A DNA stretch of 64,000 nt from an uncultured Eubacteriales bacterium (lineage in GTDB: Bacteria; Bacillota; Clostridia; Oscillospirales; CAG-272): assembly GCA_934467415.1 (NCBI GenBank), contig CAKSLQ010000003.1, forward strand, positions 77,957 through 141,956, written 5' to 3'. Each line of letters opens with the position of its first letter. Position 1 is the first letter of the stretch. A program made the position numbers and the translations under genes. The notes under the pieces are model-generated. The model was not told the origin of the DNA and did not search any database. It saw only the letters and a list, made by a program, of their open reading frames with translations. Shown piece after piece: positions 9,731 to 61,992 of this stretch.

Positions 9731-9778
9731 GCCTTCCCCAGTGGGGGAAGGTGTCGGCGGAGCCGACGGATGAGGTGT
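9731..9778 (-). repeat. solo HP-I arm (3'-arm type)
   Basis: GCCTTCCCC-AGTG-GGGGAAGG-T-GTCGGC-GGA-GCCGAC-GGATGAGGTGT. Nearly identical to the arm at 28513-28560. Confidence 0.8.
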
Positions 9779-9843: not shown

Positions 9844-9985
9844 CCGGTAGGGGTCGGCGCCCTCGACGACCCGCGCTCACCTTAGTGCAGGCGGGTGATT
9901 CGTGAATCGCCCCTACGGGATTGCAAAGGTTTTCGCGCACCGCACACCATTTTCACCGTAGGGCGGGGGCTTGCTCCCGCCGCAA
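9844..9985. repeat. mosaic of shared intergenic modules
   Basis: CCGGTAGGGGTCGGCGCCCTCGACGACCCGC (9844-9874) is the reverse complement of pieces at 55485-55499, 55587-55598 and 61565-61582. GTAGGGCGGGGGCTTGCTCCCGCCGCA (9958-9985) recurs at 55622-55648. Confidence 0.75.
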
Positions 9986-10007
9986 ATGTACGCGGACAAC
10001 TCTTTTT

Positions 10008-10118
10008 ACCTCCCTCGGTGAGGGAGGTGGCACGGCAACGCCGTGACGGAAGGAGTCTTGCTCTCTGCAAAACTCCCCCAGTCACCTATCGGTGACAGCC
10101 CCCTCAGCGAGGGGGCTG
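10008..10118 (-). repeat. HP-II five-hairpin element, copy 1 (inverted relative to the other two)
   Basis: Reverse complement aligns end to end with 50671-50778 and 61613-61718. Five consecutive stem-loops. Confidence 0.85.
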
Positions 10119-21685: not shown

Positions 21686-21852
21686 AAGTATTCTGCGTAT
21701 CCTCCGTGTTGTCGGACGGTTACCCGTCGGTTTTGCCGGAAGATGCGGCGGCAGTCCGCCGTCGGAGCATCCGCCGAATGGGCAGGCGAGCCTGCCGCTC
21801 TCGATAACTCCGATCCTCGTTAACCGCGCGGTGCGCGGTCTGGCGCTAAAGG
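21686..21852 (-). ncRNA. glmS: glmS ribozyme (GlcN6P-activated)
   Basis: The minus strand reads ..UUU-AGCGCCAGACCGCG..GGUUAACGAGGAUCGGAGUUAUCGAGAGCGG..UUCGGCGGAUGCUCC.., matching the conserved glmS core and cleavage-site context. Lies directly 5' of glmS. Confidence 0.9.
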
Positions 21853-21934
21853 CGCGGCACATGTGCCGACGCCCTTTTCATGAGCGTATATTTTCTGCGG
21901 CTCCGCCGCGGAAAAACAAAATATGAAATCCCGT

Positions 21935-28512: not shown

Positions 28513-28985
28513 GCCTTCTCCAGTGGGAGAAGGTGGCGGCGCAGCCGTCGGATGAGGTGTTTACGACAGCTGCAAGCTGTCGTAATCCAAGCACAGCTTG
28601 TCCAGTATATCTGCGGTTACAGAACCGAAGTTTTTGCGGATACTATCATTGGAATAACGAAGCACAGTAATCCCCCACAGGGCAAGCTTCTCATCTCTTT
28701 GTGCATCAGTTTGTACATGTGCATCGGACAGATGCTGTTTTCCGTCTACTTCAATCGCTATTTTTTTCTCTGCAATATAAAAGTCCAGAATATAGTTTTC
28801 AATATTGTGTTGACGCCTCACATTGCAGGGAAGTTTTTTCAGAAAGTCATACCAAAGATGCTTTTCTTCCGGTGTCATATTTTTACGAAGCGTTCGCGCG
28901 TTTTGGACAAGCTTTTTATTATATGGCAGCATGGCTACTCCTCATCCACCGCTGACGCGGTCCCCCTTCTCCCGCAGGAGAAGGC
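28513..28985 (-). mobile_element. candidate selfish element: DUF559 endonuclease ORF bracketed by double-hairpin inverted arms (HP-I, full-length form)
   Basis: Arms at 28513-28560 and 28938-28985. Each reads GCCTTCTCC-N4-GGAGAAGG, then a second hairpin, then GGATGAGG, in inverted orientation. The interior is visibly AT-rich compared with the flanks. The same arms occur without an ORF elsewhere in the window. Confidence 0.55.
28561..28932 (-). CDS. DUF559 domain endonuclease (Vsr-like PD-(D/E)XK fold)
   Basis: ..NYILDFYIAEKKIAIEVDGKQH..RDEKLALWGITVLRYSN.. is the typical DUF559 core. SD GAGGAG lies 5 nt before the ATG. Confidence 0.8.
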   Translation of the reverse strand: MLPYNKKLVQNARTLRKNMTPEEKHLWYDFLKKLPCNVRRQHNIENYILDFYIAEKKIAIEVDGKQHLSDAHVQTDAQRDEKLALWGITVLRYSNDSIRKNFGSVTADILDKLCLDYDSLQLS

Positions 28986-34550: not shown

Positions 34551-34652
34551 CCGTACAGCGGGATGCGGAATACGCACCGCAGGGCAAAGCCCTTTCGTCC
34601 GCTCCGCAACTCCCCGTCGGGGCGGCACTGTACGCGCGCATTCCTACTCTGT
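34551..34652 (-). promoter_or_regulatory. THF (tetrahydrofolate) riboswitch aptamer
   Basis: The minus strand reads ACAGAGUAGGAAUGCGCGCGU..GGGGAGUUGCGGAGCGGACGAAAG..CUGCGGUGCGUAUUCCGCAUCCCGCUGU. This matches the conserved AGAGUAG / GCGU / CGCGGUG / GCAUCCGCU elements of the THF-I class. Located 5' of folT. Confidence 0.8.
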
Positions 34653-34716
34653 AATTTAATCAGTTGAAAAATTCTGTTCTTCAACTGCCGACTCTATTAT
34701 AGTCGCTTTCTGCGGC

Positions 34717-50670: not shown

Positions 50671-50778
50671 CAGCCCCCTCGGTGAGGGGGCTGTCACCGA
50701 TAGGTGACTGGGGGAGTTTTGCAGAGAGCAAGACTCCTTCCGTCGCCGTTCGGCGACACCTCCCTCACCGAGGGAGGT
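50671..50778 (+). repeat. HP-II five-hairpin element, copy 2
   Basis: CAGCCCCCT..AGGGGGCTG, TCACC-GATA-GGTGA, GGAGTTTTGC..GCAAGACTCC, GTCGCC-GTTC-GGCGAC, CCTCCCT..AGGGAGG. Confidence 0.85.
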
Positions 50779-55365: not shown

Positions 55366-55781
55366 GGGAACGCGCAAACCGCACGGGGGCTTACTCCCGC
55401 CGTCCGAACCCAATCTGACTTTGGCTCCTCCTGACGGGGGAGCTGTCGCCGTAGGCGACTGAGGGAGAGATAACGCAAAGCAAGGCGGGTCGTCGAGGGA
55501 TGTTTTTCGGTTTCGCTTTGCGAAATCGTCGGTGTTCAGCCGACGAAGAAAAACTCCTTAGGAACACATCGTGTTCCGGGGGTCATGACCCCTACCGGAT
55601 TGTACAAAAGACGCACACACTGTAGGGCGGGGGCTTGCTCCCGCCGCACCTGCTCATACAAAACAATCATTCCCCGGTTGTTATTTTACTTTGCAAAAGA
55701 CACCTCATCCGTCGCCGTTCGGCGACACCTTCCCCCGCTGGGGAAGGCAAAGAACGCGGGTGACCGTACCGTTCTAACCAA
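55366..55781. repeat. dense mosaic of intergenic hairpin modules
   Basis: Contains a half HP-II (55423-55468), the ~60-nt shared module (55499-55557), GTAGGGCGGGGGCTTGCTCCCGCCGCA (55622-55648) and a solo HP-I 3' arm (55700-55748). Confidence 0.8.
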
Positions 55782-55944
55782 GCCTTCCCCCTTGGGGGAA
55801 GGTGGCGTGTAATACGCCGGATGAGGGGTAGCCATTCGTCAGAATGGCGTCTCACAGCACAGAACGAGACTGCGCAGACGGATGCTTACGCATCCTACCC
55901 CTCATCAGTCAACTCCGTTGACAGCTTCCCCCAAGGGGGAAGCC
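55782..55944. repeat. HP-I miniature (gene-less, symmetric arms)
   Basis: A and B hairpins, then GGATGAGGGGTA, then three small hairpins, then TACCCCTCATC followed by B' and A' hairpins. Confidence 0.85.
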
Positions 55945-56117
55945 AAAAGACGCTTTGCGTCTCGTACGGCTCTCCCCACCGGGGAAGCCTAAGGGCGAAG
56001 AGCGCTTTCTTCTCCGCTTCCCGCAAACAACCCGCCGGAAACGGCGTATTTTTTGTATTTACTTGCCGGGCGGCGGATGCTATGATTGAAATAGGAAAAA
56101 ACGCGGAGGAAACCGAC

Positions 56118-58752: not shown

Positions 58753-61380
<2,628 letters not shown>

Positions 61381-61420
61381 AGGTAATAAGGTAGGAAATG
61401 CAGGGCGGCGCGTTCTCCAA

Positions 61421-61559
61421 GCCTTCCCCTTGGGGGAAGGGGGACCGCACCCGCGGTGGATGAGGGATTGCAGGCAGCAGGCACAGCATTGTGTGATGCT
61501 TTGCTTGCATCAATCCCTCATCAGTCGCCTACGGCGACAGCTTCCCCAATGGGGAAGCC
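61421..61559 (+). repeat. HP-I miniature (gene-less, with 5'-arm and 3'-arm polarity like the DUF559 copy)
   Basis: Left arm ..GGGGAAGG-GGG-ACCGC-ACCC-GCGGT-GGATGAGGGATT. Right arm AATCCCTCATC-A-GTCGCC-TAC-GGCGAC-A-GCTTCCCC-AAT-GGGGAAGC. Confidence 0.85.
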
Positions 61560-61612
61560 TAAGAGGCGCCGACCCCTACCGGGTTTGTGGAGAATCTGCA
61601 CAATCTGTCTTT

Positions 61613-61718
61613 CAGCTCCCTCGGTGAGGGAGCTGTCGCCGAAGGCGACTGAGGGAGTTTTGCTCTGAGCGAAACTCCTTCCACCGCTGGCGCGGTCCCC
61701 CTCCCTCAATGAGGGAGG
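61613..61718 (+). repeat. HP-II five-hairpin element, copy 3
   Basis: Colinear with 50671-50778. Stems differ by paired substitutions. Confidence 0.85.
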
Positions 61719-61761
61719 TATAATTACTGTCCATCCCATCGAATTAAATTTCAAAAAACAC

Positions 61762-61790
61762 TTGACAAGCTATATCCGATTTCGTATAAT
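61762..61790 (+). promoter_or_regulatory. consensus sigma-A promoter for rpmH
   Basis: TTGACA, 17-nt spacer, TATAAT. Confidence 0.7.
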
Positions 61791-61857
61791 ATAGATTGTC
61801 TTATTGTGAATACACGCGAAGTTTCCGCTTCCGAAATACTGCAAGGAGGTGCAACCA

Positions 61858-61992
61858 ATGCTCAGAACTTACCAGCCTAAAAAGCGTCAGAGAAAAAAAG
61901 AACACGGCTTCAGAAAGAGAATGAGAACTGCCGACGGCAGAAAGGTTCTCAAGAGACGCCGCGCTAAGGGCAGAGCAAGACTCACCTATTGA
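61858..61992 (+). CDS. rpmH: 50S ribosomal protein L34
   Basis: Not in the ORF track (44 aa). [53 protein letters not shown]. Confidence 0.95.

Follow-up and report, generated by a model that had tools for sequence, protein, structure and literature searches.

The closest described counterparts of the element reported here, a gene-less pair of hairpin-rich arms (hereafter the doublet) between alaS and rpmH in a stretch of 64,000 nucleotides (nt; the window) from an uncultured gut Eubacteriales bacterium (contig CAKSLQ010000003.1, assembly GCA_934467415.1), are the BoxC/PIT repeats of Escherichia coli and other bacteria, reportedly the subject of work by Hoyne, Maher and colleagues in 2000. 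BoxC was later named PIT and then TMECO, for which the consensus is CCCTCNCCC-N3-6-GGGNGAGGG-N3-GGGNGAGGG; Escherichia coli K-12 has 23 copies, and its five inverted doublets always combine an A type with a B type (PMC4666352). The motif forms a triplex in vitro and its loci are hypervariable, and the authors of that study never found a mobility function nearby, nor a transposase (PMC4666352). They further note that purine-motif triplexes do not form in RNA and that E. coli PIT elements have neither promoter nor terminator activity (PMC4666352).

Two other groups invite comparison, namely the REP/BIME and REPIN-RAYT repeats (Bertels and Rainey 2011, PMC3116915; Di Nocera et al. 2013, PMC3733652) and the miniature inverted-repeat transposable elements (MITEs) such as Correia, RUP and Nezha. 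The window also carries a full-length relative of the doublet, in which two similar arms bracket an open reading frame (ORF) for a small DUF559 protein. We read the doublet as a structured, non-autonomous DNA repeat whose turnover goes through recombination, perhaps with DUF559 acting in trans, and give this statement, taken whole, a probability of about 0.5.

The alaS-rpmH doublet and the architecture of its arms

Five consecutive hairpins span positions 61422-61558, the same ones in DNA and in RNA folding (Table 1). The DNA fold has an energy of -49.4 kcal/mol, where shuffled sequences average -24.7 (z = -8.6), with none of 200 shuffles folding as well, and the RNA fold of the same positions gives z = -7.1. 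A first-pass annotation, made by a model from the sequence without database searches, had described a hairpin miniature here; the sequence is as that annotation gave it, and strain comparison makes the variable unit slightly wider than that annotation had it (~154 nt). Its description of the surroundings, an alaS without canonical terminator upstream and the rpmH promoter downstream, was also borne out: the doublet starts 40 nt past the alaS stop, and a scan of 61300-61900 found no hairpin followed by a T-run between the two genes.

The doublet consists of two unlike arms, one of GGG type and one of Tm type, which face each other. Their third blocks are complementary and thus build a long central stem, and the inverted arms are 71-81% complementary, which gives the element the terminal inverted repeats expected of a MITE. 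The left flank carries a motif, CGyGTTCTmmCCAAGCC, in common with the copy at 55770.

Table 1. Positions of the doublet, its parts and other repeats in the window (type I and type II are the two block families described in the text).
Feature	Position	Strand	Details
Strain-variable segment with the doublet	61409..61562	+	left edge CGCGTTCTCCAAG; right edge just before GAGGCGCC; alignment of 11 identical-RnpA strains
hpA	61422..61440	+	pyrimidine block CCTTCCCC, loop TTG, purine block GGGGAAGG
GGG spacer and hp2 (ACCGC-accc-GCGGT)	61441..61457	+	the arm's expanded second loop; hp2 itself 61444-61457
Left (third) block GGATGAGGG, = GGATGAGG(G)	61458..61466	+	reversed, mirrors hpA purine block; pairs with 61515-61522
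Centre, 48-nt imperfect palindrome	61467..61514	+	extends central stem; 21-nt arms 81% complementary
Right block CCCTCATC-A	61515..61523	+	complement of right arm's third block TGATGAGGG
hp3 (GTCGCC-tac-GGCGAC)	61524..61538	+	followed by single-A spacer
hpB (GCTTCCCC-aat-GGGGAAGC)	61540..61558	+	Tm arm hairpin, outermost pair inverted
GTAG-headed REP remnant (CCGGTAGGGGTCGGCGCCTC)	61563..61582	-	separate repeat family; complete REP doublet in strain L174
Type-II doublet adjoining the alaS-rpmH doublet, inverted to it	61613..61718	-	CCTCCCTCA..TGAGGGAGG-GGG-ACCGC..GCGGT-GGAAGGAG..CTCCCTCAG-TCGCC..GGCGA-CAGCTCCCTC..GAGGGAGCTG
rpmH promoter TTGACA-17-TATAAT	61762..61790	+	perfect match; context only; kept in all strains
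Full-length element (5' arm, DUF559 ORF, 3' arm)	28514..28984	-	ORF 28561-28932
Second gene-less type-I doublet, T/Tm	55783..55943	+	
Solo T-type arm, type I	55703..55747	+	ACACCTCATCC-GTCGCC..GGCGAC-A-CCTTCCCC..GGGGAAGG
Second solo type-I arm	9732-9775		
Type-II doublet	10008..10118	+	
Type-II doublet	50671-50778	-	
Solo type-II arm	55424-55467		

All arms share one layout, in which a pyrimidine block, a short loop, a complementary purine block and a spacer with a small hairpin are followed by a purine-rich third block that mirrors the purine block. Specifically, the third block GGATGAGG, when reversed, fits the purine strand GGAGAAGG of hpA by G*G, A*A and T*A only, and these are the triads of the purine-motif triple helix. 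Across 174 unique arms, the antiparallel register accommodates 92.7% of 1390 triad positions and other registers 33-66%; the score is 8/8 in the DUF559 arms and 7/8 in both arms of the alaS-rpmH doublet.

The third block also changes together with the hairpin. Where the loop-proximal pair of hpA is T-A and not C-G, T is the final base of the third block in 16 of 21 arms, as against 1 of 224 arms otherwise (p = 7e-20, 8 loci); three elements have this covariation in a single arm, and the change there breaks the central stem. The inverted outermost pair of the Tm arm goes with T as the first base of the third block in 7/7 unbiased arms. Moreover, a pattern that imposed no pairing at two stem positions of hp3 gave 50 unique copies, and in 49 of them those positions are complementary, with seven different dinucleotide pairs. 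The arms are constrained both as structure and as sequence, and a mirror relation such as theirs arises neither from duplication or inversion nor from ordinary base pairing.

These features bear on the idea that the doublet is the gene of a structured non-coding RNA, which we hold to be highly improbable. The RNA fold (z = -7.1) and the compensatory changes in hp3 would suit such a gene, but the mirror relation points to DNA, and no Rfam family matched the doublet at gathering thresholds, with only generic microRNA-like hairpins, far below threshold, appearing up to E 10. In addition, copies are found in either orientation, as single halves and within ORFs, and the doublet is missing from sister strains.

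The layout is that of BoxC/PIT/TMECO, since pyrimidine block, loop, purine block, second loop and mirrored third block were all found in the clostridial arms, and both families place a T opposite one A in the third block (GGGTGAGGG in E. coli, GGATGAGG here). Both are multicopy and intergenic, lie in hypervariable loci, occur as solo units and as inverted hetero-doublets (A+B there; GGG+T or GGG+Tm here), and have no associated transposase. They differ in that the clostridial blocks are 8 nt long, richer in A/T and without sequence identity to the TMECO consensus, and in that the second loop measures 15-20 nt (GGG or T plus a conserved hairpin of 12-17 nt) and not 3 nt. The host, too, differs, being a gut clostridial genome, and the triplex, shown in vitro for the E. 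coli motif, is predicted here from sequence. The clostridial arm is best classed as an architectural variant of BoxC/PIT/TMECO, not as a sequence-level member.

DUF559 genes between the arms and beside similar repeats

The ORF of the full-length element encodes a protein of 123 amino acids with a Pfam DUF559 hit at E = 5e-27 and an alignment to 3HRL (E = 7.5e-8) over a conserved D...E-x-D-G-x-x-H stretch. These matches liken it to the Vsr/EDxHD nucleases (E. coli Vsr, I-Bth0305I, Caulobacter VsrA, and NGO0050, which is PDB 3HRL), from which it departs in having no methyltransferase gene linked to it and in a role with repeats that is hypothetical. In gene orientation, the 5' arm of the element has the sequence CCTTCTCC-tgcg-GGAGAAGG-GGG-ACCGC-gtca-GCGGT-GGATGAGG-agtagcc-ATG and the 3' arm the sequence TAA-aca-CCTCATCC-GACGGC-tgc-GCCGCC-A-CCTTCTCC-cact-GGAGAAGG. 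The left arm of the doublet matches the resident 5' arm at 27 of 30 bases, in agreement with the first-pass annotation, which had pointed to the GGG spacer and the ACCGC..GCGGT hairpin that the two have in common.

A scan of one genome per species yielded 498 relatives of the protein, and the best 80 (53-78% identical) were analysed, all of them from metagenome-assembled genomes (MAGs) of gut or rumen Clostridia, in which some contigs may be mis-binned. Both arms stand at fixed distances from the ORF in 51 of the ~80 homologous loci, and the ribosome-binding site lies within the 5' arm (GGATGAGGAGT, 4-6 nt, ATG). The 5'/3' arm types of these 51 full-length elements are GGG/GGG in 27, GGG/T in 21, T/T in three and T/GGG in none, and the arm polarity is real. 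The GGG-ACCGC arm, with the GGG/hp2 string that the doublet has too, is at the 5' end in 48 of them and is a good marker of the 5' side. The T-spacer arm stands at the 3' end in 24/51, and at the 5' end only if the 3' arm is of T type as well; where the 3' arm is of GGG type, the two arms are true terminal inverted repeats.

Between orthologues the ORF has a ratio of nonsynonymous to synonymous substitution rates (dN/dS) of 0.03-0.13, the mark of a protein under strong purifying selection, and the stems and blocks of the arms show zero substitutions in pairs with an ORF dS of 0.23-3.7, all differences lying in loops. In the metagenome collection, 109 blocks index the exact window protein, and the 23 contigs examined from them are all from the human gut and have one context (Rce1-like / DUF559 / rplA), as does a 90%-identical orthologue. 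Distant homologues do not share that locus (82 loci gave 58 contexts), and in some MAGs paralogues 91-93% identical sit at other loci, with the similarity stopping at the outer hairpin. From synteny within the species, and scattered contexts and paralogues further out, the gene is mostly passed on vertically and moves occasionally. Relative to the arm markers (first base of the hpA loop, T vs A; inner AGT vs TGT) the ORF is forward in 31 elements and reversed in three (L028, L034 and L054), and the reversed cases show that gene cassette and arm scaffold can come apart.

Gene-less units greatly outnumber gene-carrying ones. Among 97 metagenome GGG arms, five adjoin a DUF559 ORF, 26 are in doublets and 68 are solo, so that the gene-less units make up a separate repeat population and are not scars left by the one resident gene. 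As in REPIN-RAYT systems, we found many gene-less copies against one vertically inherited gene bracketed by the same units, and the units are short and palindromic, occur singly or as inverted doublets that fold into long hairpins, and lie in mosaic, fast-changing intergenic clusters. The T-type arms also begin with CGTC, like the 'CGTC REPs' of Di Nocera, for which no dedicated enzyme is known. Unlike in REPIN-RAYT systems, the bracketed gene encodes a PD-(D/E)XK (Vsr-like) nuclease and not a Y1 (IS200/IS605-type) transposase, and the arms are compound (two hairpins and a third block) and have no GTAG head.

The doublet had been proposed to be an internal-deletion derivative that keeps the 5'/3' arm polarity of the DUF559 element. 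Taken strictly, as a MITE that lost its ORF and whose arm pair was mobilised by the parent's protein or left as a scar, this origin is unlikely. The doublet does resemble MITEs in its length of ~140 nt, its imperfect terminal inverted repeats, its long hairpin, its lack of coding sequence, and its ends, which are like those of a gene-carrying relative. The shared architecture and the 27/30 match of the left arm speak for descent by deletion, as does the prevalence of GGG/T (21) over T/GGG (0) in full-length elements. Of the 20 classifiable gene-less metagenome doublets with a GGG arm, moreover, 19 are hetero (partner T in 13, Tm in six, GGG in one), a contrast with the full-length elements, where GGG/GGG accounts for 27 of the 48 with a GGG 5' arm. 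The search for truncated DUF559 remnants gave one doublet (L016, 2313-2411), which retains the 5' untranslated region (UTR) AGTCCAAAAGAA and ~40 nt of the 3' end of the ORF and by its sequence is a genuine deletion intermediate, and doublets of L067 retain the junction bases AGTAAAA...ACA.

Against such an origin for the alaS-rpmH copy stands, above all, its right arm. The polarity proposal holds for the left arm, which is 5'-type, but the right one belongs to the Tm subclass (GCTTCyCC..GGrGAAGC-T-GTCnnC..GnnGAC-T-GATGAGG, with a perfectly paired GTCnnC hairpin), which occupies 0 of the 102 arm positions of full-length DUF559 elements. Tm is the right arm of both type-I doublets of the window and of two L067 doublets, and it occurs, mostly solo, in 55 phage contigs; with a subclass conserved over unrelated genomes and phage contigs, a deletion would have to be ancient and followed by independent spread. 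Doublets of the T/Tm kind (e.g., 55783-55943) are about as frequent as GGG/Tm, so the GGG arm does not define the miniatures. No ORF remnant was found in doublet centres other than that of L016, the centre of the alaS-rpmH copy has no similarity to DUF559 interiors (best E = 0.6) and is thus not parent-derived, and its hpA (CCTTCCCC) differs from the resident one (CCTTCTCC). Further differences from MITEs are the absence of a target-site duplication, the lack of a parent insertion sequence with a transposase, DUF559 being no known transposase, and the abundance of the arms as solo units. The internal-deletion interpretation of this copy is only partly supported, and we read the doublet as a long-standing branch of the family that has evolved on its own and did not arise by recent deletion from the resident copy.

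An 8-base match (GTAGCCAT) between the doublet at 55783 and the DUF559 5' UTR was considered as a further remnant and is not relied on, as related phage doublets share only GCCATT. In gut phage contigs (L101-L155, IMG/VR), solo Tm arms are frequent, often right after stop codons or seemingly inside long ORFs, and L138 (1511-1659) has two tandem Tm copies 105 nt apart in apparent coding sequence.

Hairpins of this kind also lie next to DUF559 genes outside the Clostridia, namely in E. coli, Neisseria, Deinococcus, cyanobacteria, and alpha- and gamma-proteobacteria. In E. coli K-12, the DUF559 gene ycjD has an imperfect BoxC-like hairpin at its stop codon, a ~45-nt duplicate of its own 3' end, and TMECO no. 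9 (L156, 5160-5420); the last, 168 nt downstream, was located from its sequence, and Table 1 of PMC4666352 confirms it, while the E. coli K-12 annotation has no REP feature at ycjD. This layout resembles what a recombination or insertion event would leave behind. Neisseria DUF559 genes lie among repeats of the forms CTCTCTCCC-cgt-GGGAGAGAG-t-AGAGAGAGGG and CCCTCCCCC-ac-GGGGGAGGG. In plasmid records, pyrimidine/purine hairpins adjoin DUF559 at all eight loci sampled (Azospirillum, Deinococcus, Synechocystis, Picosynechococcus, Photobacterium, Pseudanabaena, Novosphingobium and Sinorhizobium), with a clear third block in most, and the clostridial T-type arm can be aligned, base for base, with GGGGAG-G-TGGCAGTCCgaaGGACTGACG-GAGGGGT, the arm found in Novosphingobium. 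Of 11 such hairpin sites in 143 kb from four replicons, seven were within 200 nt of the DUF559 gene. Inverted pyrimidine/purine hairpins flank the DUF559 gene inside an hpa catabolic cluster on Deinococcus proteolyticus pDEIPR03 (L186, 36990-37150 and 38734-39140), with a gene-less doublet 1.7 kb from the gene, and inside a BREX operon on a Synechocystis plasmid (L188, 15215-15661). The physical link between DUF559 and such repeats is consistent in six bacterial lineages, and our literature search found no paper that ties DUF559 to these repeats, or BoxC/PIT to a nuclease.

The location inside operons (BREX, hpa) and the occurrence of the ORF in either orientation would also suit a homing endonuclease, a class represented in the Vsr-like fold by I-Bth0305I (PMC3424549). 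Gene-less doublets would then be empty sites that DUF559 cuts and into whose centre the gene is copied. We consider this very unlikely, given that the centres of the doublets are unrelated to one another (17-118 nt) and offer no recognisable target, and that gene-carrying copies keep the conserved arms whole and would therefore not escape cutting. Moreover, Tm doublets never carry the gene, which is single-copy and syntenic within the species.

Turnover between strains and a proposed mechanism

Comparison of the window with ten contigs whose RnpA is identical to the window's gave five alleles (A-E) of the alaS-rpmH spacer. Allele A, in the window and three others, has the doublet and the type-II element, and allele B (L170, within 188-737) has the same with a 50-nt two-hairpin insertion in hp3. 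Allele C (L173, L176, L177) joins left arm, centre and CCCTCATCAGTCGCC to REP sequence. The doublet is missing from allele D, which has a complete GTAG-REP doublet, and from allele E, which has a REP and a third kind of compound element. The crossover in allele C, placed by comparison with the window and L174, falls within CATCnGTCGCC, common to the right arm of the doublet and the loop and stem of the GTAG REP, so the two repeat families exchange sequence via microhomology. The doublet allele has ~154 nt in place of 63 nt of the GTAG-REP doublet allele. We found no duplicated flank in the strain comparison and, among these strains, no clean empty site that would set insertion boundaries; the alleles differ by replacement, and each alaS-end haplotype occurs with several spacer alleles. 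Turnover at this locus consists in the exchange of cassettes by recombination within a mosaic region and is not transposition of the cut-and-paste kind.

The hairpins of the 50-nt module of allele B (GTTTTCCC..GGGAAAAC and CGAGACGC..GCGTCTCG) also occur in alaS-rpmH spacers of other species (L094) and beside the 55783 doublet (55945-55990), and the module looks like a third modular repeat family.

The same strains weigh on the possibility of an immobile element selected by the host as a 3' end, an insulator or mRNA-stabilising hairpins that keep alaS apart from the rpmH promoter, since strains with an identical RnpA lack the doublet or have unrelated repeats at the site. We regard such a function, which would not exclude the reading we prefer, as improbable. 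The position 40 nt past the stop of an alaS without canonical terminator and the very stable hairpins would fit it, and elsewhere GGGGAAGGCTTTTTT, a canonical intrinsic terminator, closes many arms of T type. The solo arms of phages likewise turn their core side to the preceding gene in 10 cases against 4, a suggestive count that rests on crude ORF calls, half of the arms lying in long ORFs that may be spurious in GC-rich DNA. The alaS-rpmH copy itself, however, has no T-run, GGCTTTTTT following hpB only in some relatives, so it does not have the form of an intrinsic terminator, and E. coli PIT elements have no promoter or terminator activity (per PMC4666352). Finally, sequence is conserved across phyla beyond structure, and the mirror covariation would serve no purpose in a simple RNA hairpin.

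Our preferred reading, a structured DNA repeat moved by recombination, can be put as a sequence of steps. The arms would fold in single-stranded DNA, a placement that follows from the inability of the purine-motif triplex to form in RNA. A Vsr-like DUF559 nuclease, encoded once in the genome between two such arms, would then nick or cut the folded arms in trans, and repair from another copy, by gene conversion or template switching, would spread, reshuffle and delete units. DUF559 would stand to these repeats as RAYT does to REP/REPIN. The wider version of this proposal, that DUF559 is the dedicated partner enzyme of BoxC/PIT repeats across phyla and recognises the arms as folded hairpin or triplex, is tentative and on balance doubtful. 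In Caulobacter, a protein of the DUF559 family damages DNA in vivo (PMC12907096).

A number of observations weigh against the preferred reading. The enzymatic link between DUF559 and the arms is drawn from their association, which could also come about if repeats are recombination hot spots that collect small genes, and a PD-(D/E)XK hydrolase cannot join strands, so any spread needs host repair. Tm arms are missing beside DUF559, as noted, and the 55 Tm-bearing phage contigs contain no DUF559. As to the triplex, the position-6 triad (G with A) does not covary in 55 arms, the doublet's own arms reach only 7/8 triads, and the covariation counts ignore shared ancestry. The geometry is uneven, with the third block next to the ORF in Clostridia and distal to it in Deinococcus, Synechocystis and E. 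coli, and the units that flank the Neisseria genes are direct repeats. Earlier work found that E. coli PIT elements halt elongation by DNA polymerase in vitro and have no effect in vivo (per PMC4666352). Lastly, arm patterns served as anchors for sampling the viral and metagenome sequences, which biases both samples, and the arm detector takes only listed core variants.

If true, the wider proposal on DUF559 and BoxC/PIT would supply a mechanism for repeats that have been without one since the 1990s and a function for the very large DUF559 family, whose small nucleases have almost no assigned role. BoxC/PIT/TMECO repeats are abundant, conserved and tied to genome instability, and the CGTC-headed palindromes of Di Nocera are similarly abundant; in the literature searched, no enzyme is tied to either. 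The physical link, the three-way covariation and arms that stay unchanged while synonymous sites saturate together turn this old puzzle into a direct experiment. For annotation, the result accounts for a large class of hairpin-rich intergenic sequence in gut Clostridia and phages, and for the spurious ORFs that result from it.

Further repeats and RNA elements of the window

Besides the alaS-rpmH doublet, the window holds three further gene-less copies of type I (the GGATGAGG family). Type II has the same architecture with other blocks (hairpins of CCTCCCTC/GAGGGAGG, with GGAAGGAG...CTCCCTCAG at the centre). A DUF559 paralogue that shares 47% identity with the window protein (L043, 6440-6910, minus strand) has its own promoter-like sequence; its reading frame enters a type-II doublet at the 3' end, and the gene is not bracketed by type-II arms. 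From this paralogue, type-II arms may have a DUF559 clade of their own.

GTAG-headed REPs (e.g., GTAGGGCGGGGGCTTGCTCCCGCC and CCGGTAGGGGTCGGCGCC) are interleaved with elements of the doublet's family (HP-I) at 9845-9880, 9958-9990, 55370-55400, 55585-55650 and 61563-61582, and at alaS-rpmH the full REP doublet of other strains is half replaced by the HP-I doublet. In five metagenome doublets (L207, L222, L232, L258 and L281) the T-type right arm ends in GGGGAAGGCTTTTTT, hpB doubling as an intrinsic terminator. The window also contains, on the minus strand, a tetrahydrofolate (THF) riboswitch (34554-34653, 94 bits) and a glmS ribozyme (21689-21858, 63.9 bits), both consistent with a Bacillota genome.

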